This document shows positions 6,591 to 59,102 of a stretch of 64,000 bases of DNA, in pieces. Position 1 is the first letter of the stretch. The number at the start of each line of letters is the position of its first letter. The DNA is from Actinomycetota bacterium (GTDB lineage Bacteria > Actinomycetota > Thermoleophilia > Gaiellales > F1-60-MAGs149), in contig VGBM01000008.1 of the NCBI GenBank assembly GCA_016870485.1, forward strand, positions 23,999 through 87,998, written 5' to 3'. The notes under the pieces were generated by a model. That model did no database searches and was not told the DNA's origin. It saw nothing but the letters and a program-made list of their open reading frames with translations. Position numbers and translations under genes: made by a program.

Positions 6591-7337
6591 GTGGAGCCGA
6601 TCCGCAGCCTGCGGAACCCGGCGCTGCAGCGCGTGCGCGCGCTCCGGCGCACCTCCGAGCGCCGCGCGCAGGGCCGGTTCGCCGTCGAGGGCGAGGACCA
6701 GGTCCTGGCGGCGATCCGCGCCGGTGCCGTGCTCGAGGACCTGCTCGTCCGGGAAGGCGCTTCCGCGCCCGCGGGGGCGGGGGTCGAGCCCCTCGTCGTG
6801 GCGGCGGAGGCGATGGACCGCATCTCGGCGGTCGCCTCGGGCAGCCGCGTGATCGCCGTCGTGCGCGCCGACTCGATGCCGCAGCCGCCCGCCGGGCTCT
6901 CGGGCGTGGGCCTCGTCCTCTGCGGCGTCTCCGACCCGGGCAACGTCGGCACGCTCCTGCGCACCGCTGCCGCCTTCGCCGCCGAGGTCGTGGTGCTGGG
7001 GGCGCCGAGCGCCGACCCGACGGCCCCGAAGGCGGTGCGGGCCGCGACCGGGGCGACGTTCGCCGTGCCCACTCTCGCCGTGGACGACCCCGCGCTGGCC
7101 TACCCGGAGGCGCGCCTCGTGGCCCTCGACGCCAAGGGGGACCGCGACCTCGCCGGCTGCGACCTGACGGGCCCCGTCCTGATCGCACTCGGCGCCGAGC
7201 GCGAGGGTCTGCCCGCGTCGGTGCGCGACCGCGCCGACGTCGTCTGCCGCATCCCGCAGTCGGACCGCGCCGAGTCGCTCAACGTCGCGGCGGCCGGCGC
7301 GATCGCGCTGTCGATGGCGTACCGGCTCAGCACCTGA
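6591..7337 (+). CDS. TrmH/SpoU family RNA 2'-O-methyltransferase
   Basis: GTG at 6591 in ORF 5580..7337. RSLRNPALQRVRALRRTSERRAQGRFAVEGEDQV (substrate-binding N domain), then the SPOUT motifs GVSDPGNVGTLLRTAAAF, LGAEREGL and IPQSDRAESLNVAAAGAIAL. The position after rplT is typical. Confidence 0.88.
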   Translation: MEPIRSLRNPALQRVRALRRTSERRAQGRFAVEGEDQVLAAIRAGAVLEDLLVREGASAPAGAGVEPLVVAAEAMDRISAVASGSRVIAVVRADSMPQPPAGLSGVGLVLCGVSDPGNVGTLLRTAAAFAAEVVVLGAPSADPTAPKAVRAATGATFAVPTLAVDDPALAYPEARLVALDAKGDRDLAGCDLTGPVLIALGAEREGLPASVRDRADVVCRIPQSDRAESLNVAAAGAIALSMAYRLST

Positions 7338-7400
7338 CCCGCCCCGGCGGCATCGATATCGATCGGCGCGTCGCAACTCGCCGAGGCGGGGCCGGCGCTC

Positions 7401-8120
7401 CTAGCGCCGCTGCGCGATCACCACGAGGTCGCCCGTGCCGTCCTCGCGCACGGGCCCGCCGGCGAAGTCGCCCCAGGCGGTGATCACCTCGAAGCCGGCC
7501 TCCTCGACGAGCCGCAGCCAGTGCTCGGCGGGCACGGGGTGGAGGATGAGGGTCGTGGTGCGGCCGCGCATCTCGACCTCGATCCGCGTGGTGCCGTCGG
7601 CGCGGTGCCAGTCGGCCCGCTCCTTCGCGCCCGAGTCGCGGTGGTACCACTGGCCCTGCGTGGCGTCGATGTCCTCGGGCGTGGGCGAGAAGACGTCGAA
7701 GGCGAGGAAGCCGTGCTCCGCGAGCAGGTCGCGGGCGGCCCCGAAGGCGGCCAGGCGTGCGGCGTCGTCGGGCAGGTGCAGGAGGCTCCGGAAGGGGATC
7801 AGGACGCGGTCGTACGCACCCTCGACACCGGGCGCGAGCAGGTCGCCGGTGCGGACCTCGACGCGCTCGAGGACGCCGGCCTCCGCGGCGTTCAGGCGCA
7901 GGCGCTCGCGCATGGCGTCGGAGGGGTCGACGGCGATCACGTCGTAGCCGGCCTCGGCTAGCGGGATCGCGATGCGGCCCGTGCCGGCGGCCAGCTCGAC
8001 GATCGGCGCCTCGGACCCCTGCGCCATCCCGAGGTAGTGGGGGATGTCCTCGACGACCTCGAGGCACCACGCGTCGTAGATGTCGGCGATCGCCGCGTAC
8101 TCGTCGACGGGGTCCGCCAC
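7401..8120 (-). CDS. Class I SAM-dependent methyltransferase, substrate unknown
   Basis: GTG at 8120 in ORF 7401..8642. Motif I VELAAGTGRIAIPLAEAGYDVIAVDPSDAM. The start lies 2 nt after the hisIE stop, so it is probably co-transcribed with the his operon. Confidence 0.8.
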   Translation of the reverse strand: MADPVDEYAAIADIYDAWCLEVVEDIPHYLGMAQGSEAPIVELAAGTGRIAIPLAEAGYDVIAVDPSDAMRERLRLNAAEAGVLERVEVRTGDLLAPGVEGAYDRVLIPFRSLLHLPDDAARLAAFGAARDLLAEHGFLAFDVFSPTPEDIDATQGQWYHRDSGAKERADWHRADGTTRIEVEMRGRTTTLILHPVPAEHWLRLVEEAGFEVITAWGDFAGGPVREDGTGDLVVIAQRR

Positions 8121-8122
8121 GG

Positions 8123-8761
8123 CTAGCCCCGGAGCCAGCGCGGTGCCAGGCCCTCGCGCTCGGCGAGGACGTCGAGGACGCGCAGGGGGTCGGTGCCGTC
8201 GCGGGCGAGCAGCACCAGCAGGTGGAAGAGGACGTCGGCGGCCTCCTCGGCCTGGTGGTCGCTTCCGGGGGCGGCCTCGAGCACCTCCGCGGCCTCCTCG
8301 GCCACCTTGCCGGCGGCCACGTCGCGGTCGGCGGCGAGCAGGCGCGCCACGTAGGACGTCTCGGGGTCGACGCCGCGGCGGGCCGCGATCGTCCCGGCGA
8401 GGCGACTGAGCAGGGGGCCGGCGTCGTCGCCCCAGCAGGAACGGGTCCCGGTGTGGCAGGCGGGGCCGGCGGGCGAGACCAGCACGAGCAGCGCGTCCCG
8501 GTCGCAGTCGAGCCGGACCGACTCGACCTCGAGGACGTTGCCGCTCGTGGCGCCCTTCTCCCAGAGCTCGTGGCGCGAGCGCGACCAGAAGGTCGCCCGG
8601 CGCGTGGTGAGCGTCTGCGCGAGAGCGTCGGCGTTCATCCACGCCATCATCAGCACGGTGCCGTCGACGGCGTCCTGGCAGACCGCGGGGATCAGCCCGG
8701 CGTCGTCGTAGACCGGCTCGCCCGTGAGGGTCAGCGCATCGGCAGGCTCCTGGCTCGGCAT
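8123..8761 (-). CDS. hisIE: Bifunctional phosphoribosyl-AMP cyclohydrolase / phosphoribosyl-ATP pyrophosphatase
   Basis: ATG at 8761 in ORF 8123..9139. HisI part [26 protein letters not shown]...[28 protein letters not shown]. HisE part [25 protein letters not shown]...[14 protein letters not shown]. The start overlaps the hisF 3' end by about 31 nt. Confidence 0.92.
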
Positions 8762-9483
8762 GCGTCCTTCACCTCCTCCACCGTCGAGATCGCGTCGTGG
8801 AAGATGCTCGCAGCCAGGGCGGCGGAGACCCCGGCCTCCAGCACGTCCGCGATGTCCGCGGGGCCGCTGGCGCCGCCCGAGGCGATGATCGGCACGTCGA
8901 CGGCGTCGAGGAGGCGCGCGTAGAGGTCGAGCGCGTAGCCGGCCTGCGTCCCGTCCTGGTCCATGGCGGTCACGAGCAGCTCGCCCGCCCCGCGCTCCAC
9001 GGCCTCCACGGCCCACGCGACGGCGTCCCGGCCGGTCGGGCGGCGGCCGCCCGCGGCGACGGCCTCCCAGGCCCCGTCGGGGCCCCTGCGGGCGTCGATG
9101 GCGACCACGATGCACTGCGAGCCGTGGCGCTCGGCGCACTCGGCCACGAGACCGGGGCGGTCGAGGGCCGCCGAGTTGATCGACACCTTGTCGGCGCCGG
9201 CGCCGAGCAGGTCGCGCACGTGCGGCTCGTCGGAGACGCCGCCGCCGACGGTCAGCGGCACGTCGATCCGGGTGCCCGCGCCCTCGACCTGCGCGAGCAG
9301 CCCCTGCCAGGACTCGTCGCCCGCGGTGATGTTGAGCCAGCAGATCTCATCGGCACCCTGCTCGGCGTAGCGCAGGGCGGCGTCGACGGGCTCCCCGCAG
9401 TCGCGCAGGTTGACGAACTCGACGCCCTTGACGACGCGGCCGCCGGAGACGTCGAGGCAGGGGATGATGCGACGGCGCAGCAT
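8731..9483 (-). CDS. hisF: Imidazole glycerol phosphate synthase, cyclase subunit
   Basis: [33 protein letters not shown]...PLTVGGGV...[17 protein letters not shown] overlap with the hisH stop at 9483. Confidence 0.96.
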
Positions 9484-10088
9484 CAGGCGGGCTCCCAGGC
9501 GAGGAAACGCGAGAGGAGCTGCCGGCCGGCCTCGGCCGAGCGCTCCGGGTGGAACTGCGCCCCGGCCACGGAGCCGCGCACGACCATCGAGGCGATGGTC
9601 GCGTCGTCGATGCTCGTGATCGCGAGGGCGGACGGGATGTTGGCGGTGACCGCGTAGGAGTGCGCGAAGTACGCCACGGCGGGCAGGTCCCGGGTCAGCG
9701 GGTGGTCCTGCAGGGGCTCGACATCGTTCCAGCCGAGGTGGGGCAGGCGTGCGGCGCCGCGGATCCGGTGCACGCTGCCGTGCAGGAGCCCGAGGCCCGC
9801 GCAGTCGTCCTCCTCGGAGCGGTCGAAGAGGACCTGCAGCCCGACGCAGACGCCGAGCAGCGGCACGTGGCGTCGCGCGGCGTCGCGGAGGGCGTCGGCG
9901 AGCCCACGGGACTCGAGCGCGGCCATGGCGGCCCCGGCCGCGCCCTGGCCGGCCACCATCAGGCGCTCGGCGCCCGCCACGGCGTCCGGATCGGCCGAGA
10001 CCGCCACCCGCGCGCCGCAGCGCTCGAGCGCGGCGGTCAGCGAGCGCACGTTGCCGCCCCCGTAGTCGACGATCAGGACCGAGGCCAC
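9483..10088 (-). CDS. hisH: Imidazole glycerol phosphate synthase, glutamine amidotransferase subunit
   Basis: VLIVDYGGGNVRSL...LLGVCVGLQVLF...GAQFHPERS (Cys-His-Glu triad context). Confidence 0.95.
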   Translation of the reverse strand: MASVLIVDYGGGNVRSLTAALERCGARVAVSADPDAVAGAERLMVAGQGAAGAAMAALESRGLADALRDAARRHVPLLGVCVGLQVLFDRSEEDDCAGLGLLHGSVHRIRGAARLPHLGWNDVEPLQDHPLTRDLPAVAYFAHSYAVTANIPSALAITSIDDATIASMVVRGSVAGAQFHPERSAEAGRQLLSRFLAWEPA

Positions 10089-11794
10089 TACAGGGAGCCC
10101 TTGGTCGAGGCGATCGCGCCGGCCCGGCGCGGATCGATCGACCAGGCCGCGCGCAGCGCGCGGGCGAGCGCCTTGAAGGCCGCCTCGGCGACGTGGTGGT
10201 CGTCCTCGCCGGACGCCTCCACGTGGATGGTGGCGCGGGCATTGACCGCGATGCAGTCGATCAGGTGCGCGACGAGGCTGGTCGGCAGCTCGCCGATCCG
10301 GTCGGCGGTGAAGGCGATCCGCACGGTGCTGGAGCCACGGCCCGAGAAGTCGACGACGGCCCGGCCGAGCGCCTCGTCGAGCGGTGCGGAGGCGTCGCCG
10401 AAGCGTTGGATGCCGACGCGGTCGCCGAGCGCCGCGTCGATGGCCTGGCCGAGCACGATGCCGCAGTCCTCGACCGTGTGGTGCGGGTCGATGTGCGTGT
10501 CACCCGTGCAGGCGAGGTCGAGGTCCATCAGGGAGTGGTGCCCGAGCGCGGTCAGCATGTGGTCGAGGAAGCCGATGCCCGTGGCCACGAGCGCCTGCCC
10601 GCCGCCGTCGAGGGTGGCCTGCAGCCGGATCGCCGTCTCCTTCGTGGTGCGCTCGATCAGCGCGCCGCGGCCGAACGTCGCCGCGCCGACGGCCGGATCG
10701 TGCGGCGCGGGGGCGGGGCGGCCCAGCAGCTCGGCGAGGCCGGCCAGCAGCCGGTCGTTGTCGGCCGGGACCGACACGCAGGCGCGGATGCAGTCGGCGA
10801 GCAGGGGCTCGTGCCCGAACGTGCGCACCACGAGCCCGCGCGCCGCGAGCTGCGCGAAGGCGTCATCGCCCTGCCAGGGCGTGCGGGCGAGCACGAAGTT
10901 GGCGGCTTCGCCCACGACCTCGAGGCCGAGCTCGCGCACGCCGGCGGCGAGCCGCTCGCGCTCCGCCCGGTAGGCCGCCGTGTCGCGCCGCATGACGTCG
11001 ACGTGGCGCAGGGCCAGCTCGGCGCCGAGCGCGGAGCCGGTGGAGAGGGAGCCGGGCGGGCGCAGCGCGTCGATCGAGCCCGCGATCCCGGGATTGGCGA
11101 TCGCGTAGCCGGCGCGCAGGGCGCCGAGGCCCCAGCCCTTCGAGAAGGTGCGGACGATTACGAGGTTGGGGCAGTCGTCGAGGAGTCCGCTGTGGTCCTG
11201 CGCACCCCCGAACTCGAGGTAGGCCTGGTCGACGGCCACGACGCCGGGGCAGCGCGCGGCGATGGCCCGGATCCGCTCGGCGGGGACCTCCTCCCCCGTC
11301 GGGTTGTTCGGCGAGCAGAGCCAGACGAGGCGCGCCCCCTCGGCGCGGCGCTCGACCTCGTCGAGGTCGAGGCGCAGCCCGCCGCCGGGCAGCGGGTCGA
11401 CGAGGTCGACCTCGGCGCCGGCCATGCGGGCGCCCGTGGCGTGCAGCTGGTAGGTGGGGCGCGGAACGACGGCGCGATCGCCGCGCCCGAGCGCGATCCA
11501 GGCGGTCAGGAGGATGGCCTCGTCGCCGCCCGCGGTCGGCACGACGTGGTCGGGCGTCAGCCCGACGTAAGCCGCGATCGCGCGCTTGAGGTCGGCGTAG
11601 TCGGCCTCGGGGTAGGAGGAGACCGACTGCGCGGCGATCGTGCGCGCGATGCCGGGCCACCACGAGGGGTTCAGGGGCAGCGTGTTGAGGTCGAAGCGGG
11701 CGACGTCGCCCGCGGGCACGCCCTCCTGCCAGCGGTACGGCGACGGCTTCGCCAGCTCCGGGCGGATCCAGGGGATGTCGAGGGGCTCGCTCAC
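10088..11794 (-). CDS. hisC-hisB: Fusion protein: histidinol-phosphate aminotransferase (N) + imidazoleglycerol-phosphate dehydratase (C)
   Basis: One uninterrupted 568-aa frame. Residues 1 to ~365 are HisC-like (SYPEADYADLKRAIAAY, CSPNNPTGEEV, VRTFSKGWGLGALRAGY). Residues ~375-568 are IGPD (ERTTKETAIRLQATLDGGG, GIGFLDHMLTALGHHS, DPHHTVEDCGIVLGQA, HHVAEAAFKALARAL). I saw no in-frame start or stop in the PAPAPHDPAVGAATFGRG linker. Confidence 0.9.
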   Translation of the reverse strand: MSEPLDIPWIRPELAKPSPYRWQEGVPAGDVARFDLNTLPLNPSWWPGIARTIAAQSVSSYPEADYADLKRAIAAYVGLTPDHVVPTAGGDEAILLTAWIALGRGDRAVVPRPTYQLHATGARMAGAEVDLVDPLPGGGLRLDLDEVERRAEGARLVWLCSPNNPTGEEVPAERIRAIAARCPGVVAVDQAYLEFGGAQDHSGLLDDCPNLVIVRTFSKGWGLGALRAGYAIANPGIAGSIDALRPPGSLSTGSALGAELALRHVDVMRRDTAAYRAERERLAAGVRELGLEVVGEAANFVLARTPWQGDDAFAQLAARGLVVRTFGHEPLLADCIRACVSVPADNDRLLAGLAELLGRPAPAPHDPAVGAATFGRGALIERTTKETAIRLQATLDGGGQALVATGIGFLDHMLTALGHHSLMDLDLACTGDTHIDPHHTVEDCGIVLGQAIDAALGDRVGIQRFGDASAPLDEALGRAVVDFSGRGSSTVRIAFTADRIGELPTSLVAHLIDCIAVNARATIHVEASGEDDHHVAEAAFKALARALRAAWSIDPRRAGAIASTKGSL

Positions 11795-12645
11795 GGGATC
11801 AGGTGCTCGATGGGGACGACGAGCAGTCCGCTCGCGCCCGCCTCCTTGAGAGGATGCAACAGCCGGGGCAGATCCGCGACATCGACGACCGCGTGCACCG
11901 CGTGCATGTCGGCCCGGGCCAGCGGCAGCACCGTCGGGGCGTCGAGCCCGGGCAGGAGCGCCAGGATGCGGTCCAGCGCCACGTCCGGGGCGTTCAGCAT
12001 CAGGTAGCGCTTGGGCCGGGCGGCCAGCACCGACTCGACGGCGGTCCGCAGCACGGCGACGCGGTCGTCGTCGGCCACGCGGTCGGCGGCGATCAGGACC
12101 GCCTCGGAGCGCAGCACCGTGTCGATGATGCGCAGGCCGTTCTGGCGCAGCGTCTCGCCGGTGGAGACGAGGTCGCAGATCGCGTCGGCGGCGCCGATCG
12201 TGGGGGCCAGCTCGATCGACCCCGACAGGGTCGTCACGTCGGCCTCGACGCCGTGCTCCGCCAGGTGGGACCGCAGGACGTGGGGGTGGGAGGTGGCGAT
12301 CCGGCGGCCCGCCAGGTCGCCCACGGTCGCGATCCCCGCCTCGACGGGAGCGGCGAGGGCGAGCGTGCAGGCCCCGAAGCCGAGCGCCACGAGCACGCCG
12401 AGGCCGGCAGCGCCGTGCTCGGCGAGCTGGTTGCCTCCGACGACGCCGACGTCCGCCGCGCCGTCGCGCAGCAGGGTGGGGATGTCGTCCGTGCGCGCGT
12501 AGAGGAGCTCAACCCCCTGACCCGCGACCGGCACGAGCAGCCGCCGGTCGTCGCCGGGGATGGGGATCCCGGCGTCGGCGAGCAGGCTGCGCGTCGGGTC
12601 GGCGAGGCGCCCCTTGGAGGGCACCGCGATGCGCAGGGCGCTCAT
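11791..12645 (-). CDS. hisG: ATP phosphoribosyltransferase, long form
   Basis: ATG at 12645 in ORF 11791..12705. MSALRIAVPSKGRL...DLVSTGETLRQNGL, plus a C-terminal regulatory domain (KRYLMLNAP...). ATGA overlap with the upstream regulator gene and GTGA overlap with the hisC-hisB start. Confidence 0.94.
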   Translation of the reverse strand: MSALRIAVPSKGRLADPTRSLLADAGIPIPGDDRRLLVPVAGQGVELLYARTDDIPTLLRDGAADVGVVGGNQLAEHGAAGLGVLVALGFGACTLALAAPVEAGIATVGDLAGRRIATSHPHVLRSHLAEHGVEADVTTLSGSIELAPTIGAADAICDLVSTGETLRQNGLRIIDTVLRSEAVLIAADRVADDDRVAVLRTAVESVLAARPKRYLMLNAPDVALDRILALLPGLDAPTVLPLARADMHAVHAVVDVADLPRLLHPLKEAGASGLLVVPIEHLIP

Positions 12646-12947
12646 CGGGGCCGGCCCAGCCGGTCCAACACGGCCCGATAGCCGCCTTCGCCGTGGCGCA
12701 GCCACTGGGCGACGCGGGTGACGGTGGCGGTCGAGGCGCCGAGGCGCTTGGCGACCTCGGCGTAGGGCAGGCCGGCGTCGACGAGGCGCGCCGCCTCCAG
12801 CCGCTGGGCCAGCGCCCCGAGCTCGGTGAAGGAGCAGACGTCGCGCAGGAACGCGAGCATCGTCTCGCGGTCGTCGATCTCGATAAGCGCGTCGGCGAGC
12901 TGCTCGACGGCCGGGGTCCTCCAGGTGGTCTCCGCAGATTGTTTCAT
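12642..12947 (-). CDS. TrpR-like YerC/YecD family DNA-binding protein (candidate his regulator)
   Basis: 101 aa: ...LADALIEIDDRETMLAFLRDVCSFTELGALAQRLEAARLVDAGLPYAEVAKRLGASTATVTRVAQWLRHGEGGY. This is the typical YerC/YecD (Trp repressor-like) layout. It is the first gene of the his operon. Confidence 0.8.
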   Translation of the reverse strand: MKQSAETTWRTPAVEQLADALIEIDDRETMLAFLRDVCSFTELGALAQRLEAARLVDAGLPYAEVAKRLGASTATVTRVAQWLRHGEGGYRAVLDRLGRPR

Positions 12948-12948
12948 C

Positions 12949-12966
12949 GTGTTAGCATGCTAACAC
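12949..12966. promoter_or_regulatory. 18-bp perfect palindrome GTGTTAGCATGCTAACAC, candidate shared operator with overlapping divergent -10 elements
   Basis: It fills the 20-bp gap between the regulator start codon (12945-12947, minus) and the hisA GTG (12968). The dyad centre is equidistant (10.5 bp) from both start codons. TAGCAT (TANNNT-like -10) reads outward on both strands. Confidence 0.65.
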
Positions 12967-12967
12967 A

Positions 12968-13726
12968 GTGAACGGCCCCCGTGACGACTTCCTGCTCTAC
13001 CCGGCGATCGACCTGGTCGCCGGCCGGGCGGTGCGGCTTCTGCACGGGCAGTTCGACCAGATCCTGACGAACGAGCTGGACGACGCTCTCGAGCGGGCGC
13101 GCCGCGTCTGGGAGGCCGGCTCGCGCGCCCTGCATGTGATCGACCTCGATGCGGCGCGCAGTGGGGAGCCCGCCGAGCCGAACCGCGGCCTCGTCCGCGC
13201 GATCGCCGCCGCGAAGCCCCCGACGGGGCTCCTGCAGGTCGGCGGGGGCCTGCGCAGCGCCGCGGCCGTGGACCGCCTGATCGCCGATGGCGTCGACCGC
13301 GTCCTGATCGGCACCATGGCCTTCCGGGAGCCCGAGCTCCTCGACGCCCTGATCGCGCACCACGGCGCGGCGATCGCCGTCGCCATCGACAGCCGCGGGG
13401 GCAGCGTGCGCATCGCCGGCTGGCAGGAGGACGCGGGCGTCCCCGTGGCGGAGGCGGCGCGCGAGCTCGTCGACCGCGGCGTACGGCACCTCCTCGTCAC
13501 CGGGATCGACCGCGACGGCTCCCTCGCCGGTCCCGACCTCGCGCTCCTGGAGGGCGTCCTGGCGGCCGTGGCGGGGGGCCGGGCCGGGGTGATCGCCGCC
13601 GGGGGCGTGACCACGGCGGGGGACGTGCGGAACGCCCGCGCCCTCGGCTGTGCCGGCGCCGTCGTCGGCCGGGCGCTCCTGGACGATCCGGACCTGCTCG
13701 CCGAGCTGCTCGCCGCGGCCGCCTAA
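12968..13726 (+). CDS. hisA: ProFAR isomerase HisA (a PriA-type bifunctional HisA/TrpF cannot be excluded)
   Basis: LLYPAIDLVAGRAVRLLHGQFDQ...LQVGGGLRS...LLVTGIDRDGSLAGPD...IAAGGVTTAGDV. Confidence 0.92.
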   Translation: MNGPRDDFLLYPAIDLVAGRAVRLLHGQFDQILTNELDDALERARRVWEAGSRALHVIDLDAARSGEPAEPNRGLVRAIAAAKPPTGLLQVGGGLRSAAAVDRLIADGVDRVLIGTMAFREPELLDALIAHHGAAIAVAIDSRGGSVRIAGWQEDAGVPVAEAARELVDRGVRHLLVTGIDRDGSLAGPDLALLEGVLAAVAGGRAGVIAAGGVTTAGDVRNARALGCAGAVVGRALLDDPDLLAELLAAAA

Positions 13727-14044
13727 CAGCGCCGATCCGACCACCGCCTCGAAGGGTGATTGAGGGGTACGCATGAACCTCAGGCTCAGATTTCTGCGGT
13801 TTCACTTGAGCGTTTTCGGCCGCCTGGGCGTGATCGAGACCGTTCCGTTACGCACAGCTTCTCGCGACGAAACACGATAAATAAGCCAAAGATGGGGAAT
13901 ACCCTCAGCCTTCGGTTGAGGCATTTACGAAAACGCAACCGGCTCGAGCTTGCGGGTAGCATGGGATTGCCCGTACAGTCTCGATCTCTTTAGAGGGTTC
14001 TGCCCTCAGTCAGAGACCGAGACTCCTAACCGTCGATCTGAGAA
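13727..14044 (+). promoter_or_regulatory. AT-richer structured 5' leader upstream of the NlpC/P60 gene (candidate riboswitch or cis-regulatory RNA)
   Basis: Visibly lower GC than the flanks (GATAAATAAGCCAAAGAT, CATTTACGAAAAC). Hairpins at 13903-13921 (CCUCAGCC/GGUUGAGG) and 13952-13974 (GCGGG/CCCGU). A three-tier hairpin at 13978-14023 (GUCUCG/CGAGAC, UCUCU/AGAGA, GAGGG/CCCUC) ends 21 nt before the ATG. Confidence 0.5.
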
Positions 14045-32084: not shown

Positions 32085-32155
32085 AGCGGGTAGGGAGAAT
32101 CGAACTCCCGTATTCAGCTTGGAAGGCTGCTGCTCTACCATTGAGCTATACCCGC
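32085..32155 (-). tRNA. tRNA-Gly (anticodon UCC)
   Basis: Reverse complement GCGGGTATAGCTCAATGGTAGAGCAGCAGCCTTCCAAGCTGAATACGGGAGTTCGATTCTCCCTACCCGCT folds as a cloverleaf. The anticodon loop is CUUCCAA. Confidence 0.93.
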
Positions 32156-59027: not shown

Positions 59028-59029
59028 GG

Positions 59030-59102
59030 CGCCCCCGAGACGATTTGAACGTCTGACCCCAGCCTTCGGAGGGCTGTGCTCTATCCCCTGAGCTACGGGG
59101 GC
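59030..59102 (-). tRNA. tRNA-Arg (anticodon CCG)
   Basis: Reverse complement GCCCCCGTAGCTCAGGGGATAGAGCACAGCCCTCCGAAGGCTGGGGTCAGACGTTCAAATCGTCTCGGGGGCG. The cloverleaf has anticodon loop CUCCGAA. Confidence 0.93.

Follow-up and report, generated by a model that had tools for sequence, protein, structure and literature searches.

Results

Gene organization of the locus

In the window, by which we mean the whole stretch of 64,000 nucleotides analysed here, the genes of histidine biosynthesis form a compact operon on the minus strand and, divergent from it, hisA (Table 1). Between hisG and hisH lies a gene that we name hisCB, in which a histidinol-phosphate aminotransferase (HisC) domain is followed by an imidazoleglycerol-phosphate dehydratase (IGPD) domain. 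The preliminary description of this DNA had placed both enzymes in one ORF of 568 codons, and the ORF listing, Pfam and NCBIfam all bear this out. Its strand had been left unstated there.

Table 1. Coordinates of the hisCB gene, its parts and its neighbours in the window
Feature	Position	Strand	Remarks
hisIE	8123..8761	minus	PRA-CH + PRA-PH; second fused gene of the same operon
hisF	8731..9483	minus	cyclase subunit
hisH	9483..10088	minus	glutamine amidotransferase subunit; directly downstream of hisCB
hisCB	10088..11794	minus	one 568-aa ORF, 59.7 kDa, HisC-linker-IGPD; GTG start overlaps hisG stop (GTGA); TAG stop overlaps hisH GTG by 1 nt
IGPD domain	10088..10669	minus	residues 376-568 + stop; predicted Mn-dependent imidazoleglycerol-phosphate dehydratase
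Interdomain linker	10670..10723	minus	residues 358-375, ~18 residues, Pro/Ala-rich; GRPAPAPHDPAVGAATFG
HisC domain	10724..11794	minus	residues 1-357 (approx.); predicted PLP-dependent histidinol-phosphate aminotransferase
Schiff-base Lys219 codon	11138-11140	minus	
hisG	11791..12645	minus	long-form ATP phosphoribosyltransferase (HisG + HisG_C); directly upstream of hisCB, translationally coupled; likely ATG at 12645, overlapping hisR stop (ATGA)
hisR-like gene	12642..12947	minus	TrpR-family regulator (PF01371, E 7e-20); first gene of the operon
Palindrome	12949..12966		perfect, 18 bp, GTGTTAGCATGCTAACAC; within the 20-bp gap between divergent hisR and hisA
hisA	12968..13726	plus	divergent from the operon

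The order hisR-hisG-(hisD)-hisCB-hisH-hisF-hisIE with a divergent hisA is found again in the related loci L003-L007, L009, L010 and L014, and in L003-L007 and L014 the palindrome, too, is kept ahead of hisR. With its core TTA-N6-TAA it is a candidate operator for HisR, a regulator described previously (PMC9413887). A search with Rfam for T-boxes, attenuators and riboswitches ahead of the operon returned just a tRNA. The window holds no second hisC or hisB and no hisD.

As the G+C content of the window reaches 73.8% and long spurious ORFs are abundant in it, the length of an ORF is by itself weak evidence for a gene. The matches to Pfam and NCBIfam, with E-values of 2e-42 for Aminotran_1_2 and 5e-55 for IGPD, however exclude chance.

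Assignment of the two domains

In the N-terminal domain, Aminotran_1_2 covers residues 43-350 with 146 bits against a gathering score of 19.7, and the NCBIfam hisC model TIGR01141 matches residues 11-355 as the top aminotransferase model. Alignment with the solved HisC of E. coli and Klebsiella indicates that the counterparts of E. coli Y55, D85, Y110, N157, D184, Y187, T211, S213, K214, R222, R322 and R335 are all conserved. In the E. coli enzyme, K214 is the Schiff-base lysine of an S-K motif, D184, N157 and Y187 contact PLP, and R322 and R335 are the arginines for the substrate phosphate; these residues align with K219, D189, N164, Y192, R324 and R337 of hisCB, which are invariant across 13 diverse fused homologues. 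In Foldseek comparisons with solved HisC structures, the domain gave TMt values (TM-score normalised to the target) of 0.86-0.90.

For the C-terminal domain the Pfam IGPD profile is matched over its full length (positions 1-144 of 144) at residues 405-547, with 186 bits against 27. NCBIfam HisB/IGPD models match residues 376-568, and the equivalog cut-off of NF002114 is passed (196.7 bits against 189). Alignment with plant, fungal and amoebal IGPD, including 6fwh, 2f1d and 4mu0, locates two D-x-H-H-x-x-E metal motifs (D436-E442 and D531-E537), the further histidine ligands H412 and H510, and also R459/R464, R486, K541 and S563-T564-K565. The metal and substrate residues are likewise invariant in the fused family, as judged from the same 13 homologues. 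The domain is 52% identical to 6fwh and superposes on it with a TMt of 0.88 and an rmsd of 1.0.

All the motif strings quoted in the preliminary description were located in the protein, namely VRTFSKGWG at residues 214-222, DPHHTVED at 436-443, DDHHVAEA at 531-538 and the linker string RPAPAPHDPAVGAATFGRG at 360-378. The junction lies near the interval 10640-10720 singled out there. In the AF2 monomer model, the mean pLDDT is 83.7; most of each domain exceeds 85, and the linker lies at about 70-75.

Distribution and evolution of the fusion

Homologue clusters were drawn from ENA, NCBI, JGI and Logan. More than 110 of the 120 best homologues are full-length proteins with both Pfam domains at 47-94% identity, and for more than 100 clusters in this range of identity the query coverage is 98-100%, the match being co-linear with HisC N-terminal and IGPD C-terminal. 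Moreover, a single open frame runs through both domains in 11 species-level genomes of Thermoleophilia/Gaiellales/Gaiellaceae (GTDB), in each of them as part of the same his operon. A whole group of actinobacteria from soil and freshwater thus shares the fusion, and for Gaiellales-type Thermoleophilia it is the normal condition. When the two domains were analysed separately by neighbour joining, the Thermoleophilia fusions all fell into one clade in either tree, which points to a single origin within this group.

Of the 150 best cluster representatives, about 60 are full-length proteins with the fusion. Hosts with a taxon belong to Gaiellales/Gaiellaceae, Pirellulaceae/Planctomycetota and Phycisphaerales, and the distant fused representatives share 33-66% identity with the taxon-labelled loci. 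The fusion has emerged anew in other phyla, with an independent origin in Planctomycetota, and it recurs in many uncharacterised metagenomic lineages. Some representatives are larger fusions, with the architectures HisC-phosphatase-IGPD, HisD-HisC-IGPD and HisD-HisC-phosphatase-IGPD; a HisD-HisC-HAD-IGPD protein reaches 1401 aa. A genome scan found hisC followed by an adjacent hisB, split solely by a stop codon, in many other phyla, which suggests a likely route of fusion. Pairs in the same frame dominate the list of unfused hisC-hisB pairs, since one stop codon does not interrupt a tblastn alignment, so that their share carries no inference.

Reversal is also seen. In two relatives, L001 and L002, hisA, hisR, hisG, IGPD, hisH, hisF and hisIE are lost and the HisC domain is kept, which shows that the two domains are separable. 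We also considered P0035 and P0118 as fragments or frameshifted fusions and rejected this, for both are complete stand-alone genes with a methyltransferase gene directly after them.

Alternative explanations of the gene and its product

In DNA as rich in G+C as this, an indel at the junction might have joined a separate hisC and hisB, and where the two genes lie in the same frame one stop codon apart, as in the many phyla noted above, a single error could do so. However, the in-frame junction is shared by more than 110 independently assembled clusters from the four data sources and by the 11 separate species genomes, which makes such an artefact very unlikely, and linker length differs among homologues by whole codons with the frame preserved. 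The recurrence of the junction thus effectively refutes this explanation, to which we give a negligible probability. A different question is whether the one ORF yields two proteins, with internal initiation or proteolysis in the linker freeing HisC and IGPD, and the fusion being a device for co-expression only. The linker is flexible and rich in Pro and Ala, its length and sequence differ from one homologue to the next, and the HisC part does stand alone as a gene in close relatives. Nevertheless, the codon scan found no in-frame stop and no ATG, GTG or TTG in the linker, as the preliminary description had already read, and no such start codon occurs from the end of HisC to the first IGPD strand; nor did we see a site for a protease or anything resembling an intein. 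In addition, certain homologues have essentially no cleavable linker: in those with the shortest one, VRTF and RxTxET are 47 residues apart, where the two native termini would by themselves account for roughly 42. Separate products are therefore quite improbable in our judgement.

The identity of the N-terminal enzyme deserves equal care, since it might be mainly an aromatic aminotransferase or one of broad specificity, or else an enzyme resembling CobD, fused to IGPD by chance. Its score with TIGR01141 (227.2 bits) misses the equivalog cut-off of 276.55, and the CobD model TIGR01140 is close behind with 206 bits, so that the substrate specificity of the domain is deduced from context and residues. 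Besides, the precise retention of the HisC domain in L001 and L002 speaks for a function beyond the making of histidine, and aromatic activity is documented for enzymes of the HisC family (PMC3896937; PDB 4r2n). Against this, the substrate and PLP residues of E. coli HisC are all kept, including both phosphate-binding arginines, and in a sequence search of solved structures the matches to HisC are far better than those to CobD (E 1e-37 against 5e-20). Neither the operon nor the rest of the window offers another hisC, and the domain occupies the place of hisC in unfused operons. A chance fusion of an enzyme with mainly another function is accordingly a poor candidate, though a dual role, on histidinol phosphate and on aromatic substrates, would agree with the observations on either side and is compatible with a bifunctional hisCB.

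Discussion

From the evidence above we consider it highly probable that hisCB is a genuine bifunctional gene under selection, which arose when neighbouring hisC and hisB genes were joined in frame in an ancestor of Gaiellales-type Thermoleophilia. In the proposed scheme, the C-terminal Mn-dependent IGPD would convert imidazoleglycerol phosphate to imidazole acetol phosphate, and the N-terminal PLP-dependent HisC would then convert this product with glutamate to histidinol phosphate. The gene would be expressed within its tightly overlapping operon, probably repressed by HisR, and with one chain carrying both activities, these would be made at a strict 1:1 ratio and kept together.

Regarding known systems, the nearest likeness is the bifunctional HisB (HisN-IGPD) of E. 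coli, Salmonella and others, which likewise has a C-terminal IGPD with a histidine enzyme on its outward-facing N-terminus and was likewise born from operon neighbours (PMC8305728, PMC10978614). In HisB, however, IGPD is joined to a HAD-type histidinol-phosphate phosphatase, whose step does not directly follow that of IGPD, whereas in hisCB it is joined to a 357-aa PLP aminotransferase of the dimeric HisC family, which would catalyse the very next step. The HisNB model NF003937 matches only at its positions 167-355, the IGPD half (195 bits against a cut-off of 443), and Pfam gives no match to a HAD (DDDD) or Hydrolase domain in the hisCB product. The earlier statement that the fused enzymes catalyse consecutive steps and differ from the classical HisB is upheld by the Pfam and NCBIfam models, the alignments and Foldseek. 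With stand-alone HisC (E. coli 1fg3, C. glutamicum 3cq5, M. tuberculosis Rv1600 4r8d) the N-terminal domain shares the fold, the PLP and substrate residues and the place in the operon before hisB, but it is about 30% identical to these enzymes, stays under the TIGR01141 cut-off and has an IGPD attached at its C-terminus. With stand-alone IGPD (Acanthamoeba 6fwh, Arabidopsis 4mu0, M. tuberculosis 4gqu), an Mn-dependent 24-mer, the metal and substrate residues are shared, but the N-terminus is tethered to HisC through the linker. The same process of merging operon neighbours gave hisIE, which is fused in the hisCB operon too, hisHF/HIS7, HIS4, hisZ-hisG and hisJ-hisB.

How one chain could serve both enzymes is a structural question. 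IGPD forms a 24-mer of 432 symmetry with its N-terminal sheet facing outward (PMC10978614), and HisC forms dimers and has an N-terminal arm (PMC3896937). Since the active sites of both parent enzymes use more than one chain, both oligomeric states should persist; for the 24-mer, the conserved active-site residues that act between subunits point the same way. An octahedral 24-mer has 12 two-fold positions on its surface. Given the outward N-terminal sheet of IGPD, the particle is likely to be a 24-mer IGPD core with 12 outward HisC dimers on the two-folds, of about 1.43 MDa as we infer it. The preliminary description had seen a difficulty in reconciling the 24-mer with the dimer; one chain must indeed meet both, but symmetry allows it to do so. 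In some homologues the near absence of spare linker could put strain on either oligomer. The benefit of the fusion is probably co-assembly and proximity. It is tempting to go further and to suppose jointly that 12 HisC dimers lock the 24-mer into a natural cage of the 'trimer plus dimer' type, a particle of ~1.4 MDa, that imidazole acetol phosphate is channelled within it, that in other lineages the scaffold recruits the phosphatase and HisD, and that HisC has a second job such as aromatic transamination, but this whole combination is speculative and on balance we doubt it. If it were true, the HisD-HisC-HAD-IGPD protein would be a single-polypeptide machine for the late histidine pathway, and the second job of HisC would explain why exactly this domain is retained in the relatives that lost the operon.

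It had been foreseen that the architecture might prove common and already characterised. Common it is, both among clusters and among genomes, but our full-text literature search, covering his gene fusions and Actinobacteria, found no description of a HisC-IGPD or hisCB fusion, and neither sequence search nor Foldseek fold search found a solved chain spanning both domains. Matches to 'hisBC' or 'hisCB' in the literature proved to be operon shorthand or unrelated, and the published lists of his fusions (PMC1963479, PMC8305728, PMC9413887) do not include hisC-hisB. The names given by automated annotation refer to just one of the domains or are mistaken, reading 'IGPD/histidinol-phosphatase'. As a consequence, when the metabolism of Gaiellales and related uncultured actinobacteria is reconstructed, hisC or hisB may be overlooked, or a phosphatase wrongly assigned to these organisms.

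Histidine biosynthesis is a textbook case of gene fusion shaping pathways, yet the catalogued fusions (hisNB, hisIE, hisHF, HIS4, HIS7 and others) omit hisC-hisB. The hisCB family adds new data on how pathways evolve, with a fusion that is ancient and clade-wide in Thermoleophilia and has more than one origin, together with its extension by HisD and/or the phosphatase and its reversal to HisC alone. As a single chain that has to accommodate both an obligate 24-mer and an obligate dimer, it is also an attractive test case for cryo-EM and for substrate channelling.

Reading frame, catalytic residues and fold

Histidinol-phosphate aminotransferase (HisC) and imidazoleglycerol-phosphate dehydratase (IGPD) are encoded in the window by one ORF, hisCB, which is uninterrupted in both the ORF listing and the raw sequence. 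Pfam places Aminotran_1_2 at residues 43-350 (E 2e-42) and IGPD, over its full length, at 405-547 (E 5e-55), while the NCBIfam hisC model TIGR01141 spans residues 11-355 and several HisB/IGPD equivalogs match 376-568. Because the G+C content of the window is 73.8%, the ORF length is uninformative and the profile E-values are the proof. The preliminary description, whose quoted sequence strings were all found in hisCB, had claimed this fusion with a linker free of stops and internal starts, and both points are borne out: the junction GRPAPAPHDPAVGAATFG contains no stop codon and no in-frame ATG, GTG or TTG.

Features of hisCB, its operon and related fusions (L, loci from GTDB species genomes; P, protein-cluster representatives; HAD, the phosphatase domain type of HisN-IGPD)
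Feature	Source	Coordinates	Strand	Length	Remark
hisCB ORF	window	10088..11794	-	568 aa	GTG start
Interdomain junction	window	10670-10723	-		residues 358-375, between HisC and IGPD
hisIE, PRA-CH + PRA-PH fusion	window	8123-8761
hisF	window	8731-9483
Candidate HisR operator GTGTTAGCATGCTAACAC	window	12949-12966		18 bp	perfect palindrome; fills divergent hisR/hisA gap
HisC-IGPD	L019, Pirellulaceae	7866-9581		571 aa
HisC-IGPD	L024, Planctomycetota	7818-9635		605 aa
HisD-HisC	L064, MAG 'bacterium isolate DS3.bin64'	6762-9056		764 aa	one ORF
HisC-HAD-IGPD	P0127, P0144, P0162, P0165, P0170, P0183			~750-860 aa	metagenomic representatives
HisD-HisC-IGPD	P0182			1001 aa	three sources: JGI, ENA, NCBI
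HisD-HisC-HAD-IGPD	P0138			1401 aa	single ENA contig only

On alignment to the solved E. coli HisC (1fg3), residues Y61, D91, Y115, N164, D189, Y192, T216, S218, K219, R227, R324 and R337 of hisCB correspond to E. coli Y55, D85, Y110, N157, D184, Y187, T211, S213, K214, R222, R322 and R335, whose roles are known from E. coli structures. The IGPD half, 52% identical to Acanthamoeba IGPD (6fwh), retains both D-x-H-H-x-x-E motifs, H412, H510, the arginines and the C-terminal S-T-K. The catalytic positions of both halves are invariant across 13 aligned fused homologues with identity down to ~50%. In the AlphaFold2 model (mean pLDDT 83.7) both domains are mostly above 85, with lower values in the N-terminal arm, linker and C-terminal tail; by Foldseek the HisC half matches solved HisC structures with target-normalised TM-scores of 0.86-0.90 and the IGPD half matches solved IGPD with 0.88 (rmsd 1.0). 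Neither sequence nor fold search found a solved chain covering both. Since TIGR01141 scores the HisC half at 227 bits, below its cut-off of 276.55 bits (the CobD model gives 206 bits), specificity rests on the residues, the context and E-values that favour solved HisC over CobD (1e-37 vs 5e-20). Both halves look catalytically competent from alignment and model.

Distribution and origin

The survey of its spread that had been proposed finds the fusion widespread. The 120 best homologues among 5.8 billion proteins include more than 110 of 530-575 aa with both Pfam domains (query coverage 98-100%, identity 94% down to 47%), drawn from ENA, NCBI, JGI and Logan assemblies, with source names indicating Gaiellales. 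An exhaustive HMMER search covered 1.84 billion representatives at 50% identity, and among the best 150 the architecture occurs in ~60 full-length proteins; ~47 of the 150 are full-length single-stretch matches (31-50% identity), with 4 further two-stretch matches and 10 longer multi-domain fusions, and numerous fragments also span the junction. Scanning GTDB with one genome for each species gave 80 loci, and an explicit frame check found a single open frame across both domains in 11 genomes (L003-L012, L014) from Thermoleophilia, Gaiellales, Gaiellaceae and Gaiella. Linkers differ in length by multiples of a codon: the VRTF and RxTxET motifs lie 47-66 residues apart (median 54; 59 in the window protein). 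The fusion is not an artefact; it is real and common.

In neighbour-joining trees, whether of the HisC or of the IGPD half, all Thermoleophilia fusions fall in one clade, which fits a single old fusion. L019 and L024, with long (~40-60 aa), unrelated linkers and the context hisG-hisCB-hisH-hisF, branch outside this clade in both trees, so the Planctomycetota fusions arose independently; P0131 is a Phycisphaerales member. In many other phyla a lone stop codon separates hisC from the hisB that directly follows it, an obvious precursor state. In L064 HisD is fused to HisC, and a gene of its own, overlapping and in a different frame, encodes IGPD; this is another fusion solution within the same operon layout.

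Complete HisC-only genes also occur, in P0035 (359 aa, 76% identity) and P0118 (365 aa, 62%). The L001 contig, which shares synteny and ~78% nucleotide identity with the window, lacks the parts corresponding to window 11777-13904 (hisG, hisR, hisA) and 8106-10725 (linker, IGPD, hisH, hisF, hisIE), and its HisC part lies between an NlpC/P60 gene and a methyltransferase gene. Stand-alone HisC matching window 10725-11777 is seen in two close relatives, at L001 4001-5080 and L002 581-1678, in both cases flanked by the NlpC/P60 and methyltransferase genes, the rest of the operon being gone. As P0035 (sister to the window protein) and P0118 nest within the fused clade of the HisC tree, the HisC-only state is a secondary loss by two separate deletions sparing exactly the HisC domain. 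The catalytic residues stay invariant in these relatives; the domain would fold and work alone, and the pattern suggests histidine auxotrophy with a histidine-independent role of HisC. Aromatic transamination is documented in the HisC family (PMC3896937).

Operon and regulation

The conserved layout is a divergent hisA, then hisR-hisG-(hisD in Gaiellaceae)-hisCB-hisH-hisF-hisIE. Gaiellaceae relatives (L009, L010, L014) have hisD between hisG and hisCB; hisD was found neither in the window operon (7401-13726) nor in the whole 64 kb, and no histidinol-phosphate phosphatase candidate was identified within the operon. Overlaps at every gene junction (ATGA, GTGA, TAGTG) indicate tight translational coupling. 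Upstream, hisG ends in a TGA that shares bases with the GTG start of hisCB; downstream, hisH begins with a GTG that has one base in common with the TAG stop of hisCB; and the predicted start of hisIE reaches ~31 nt into the end of hisF, a pattern resembling that in L003, L004 and L007. The first gene encodes a TrpR-family HisR-like regulator (HisR, PMC9413887). The palindrome between the hisR ATG at 12947 and the hisA GTG at 12968, whose core TGTTAGCATGCTAACA is kept upstream of hisR in L003-L007 and L014, is a candidate Thermoleophilia HisR operator and shares a TTA-N6-TAA core with published HisR motifs. Rfam at the gathering threshold gave no T-box, attenuator or riboswitch in window 1-64000. 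Its sole match is tRNA-Gly at 32085-32155; ARAGORN adds a tRNA-Arg(CCG) at 59028-59102, which has no Rfam match at threshold.

Discussion

Judged by its sequence, hisCB is one polypeptide with intact IGPD and HisC catalytic sets, encoded in a translationally coupled operon. IGPD activity requires a Mn-dependent 24-mer with sites shared between chains. An octahedral 24-mer, with its six two-fold axes, has 12 two-fold positions at its surface, each with a subunit on either side, so that 12 HisC dimers could be placed with the symmetry intact. HisC is obligately dimeric and carries an N-terminal arm (PMC3896937), and in the 24-mer of 432 symmetry the N-terminal sheet of IGPD makes the outer surface (PMC10978614); N-terminal fusions therefore face outward, as in HisN-IGPD. 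The need to reconcile a 24-mer with a dimer, raised in the preliminary description, can be satisfied within this symmetry, and we infer as the fit an IGPD core carrying 12 outward HisC dimers at the two-fold positions, with a mass of 24 x 59.7 kDa = 1.43 MDa. Short linkers of some homologues imply fairly fixed docking. The fusion secures 1:1 stoichiometry and proximity, and imidazole acetol phosphate could be channelled directly.

Among known systems the nearest is HisN-IGPD, the bifunctional HisB, from which hisCB had rightly been distinguished: Pfam finds no HAD domain and the NCBIfam bifunctional model is matched by the IGPD half only, which places hisCB outside that family. Catalogued his fusions comprise hisD, hisNB, hisIE, hisHF, HIS4, HIS7, hisZ-hisG and hisJ-hisB (PMC1963479, PMC8305728, PMC9413887); hisC-hisB is absent from these lists, and we found no description in the open-access literature. 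Of the suspicion that the architecture might prove common and already characterised, only the former holds: in the open-access literature the fusion is uncharacterised. P0138 would unite the last five pathway reactions in one chain. Both functions often appear in names from the JGI pipeline. NCBI names of fused proteins cover one domain only ('aminotransferase class I/II-fold...', 'HisB'), and MDX6523695.1 (Gaiellales) is named 'imidazoleglycerol-phosphate dehydratase / histidinol-phosphatase', which is wrong for this architecture. Such misnamed or part-named members of clusters P0121, P0124 and P0131 (e.g. MDX6523695.1, MGZ4399462.1, NRA58372.1) amount to a systematic annotation gap in the public names for HisC-IGPD proteins.
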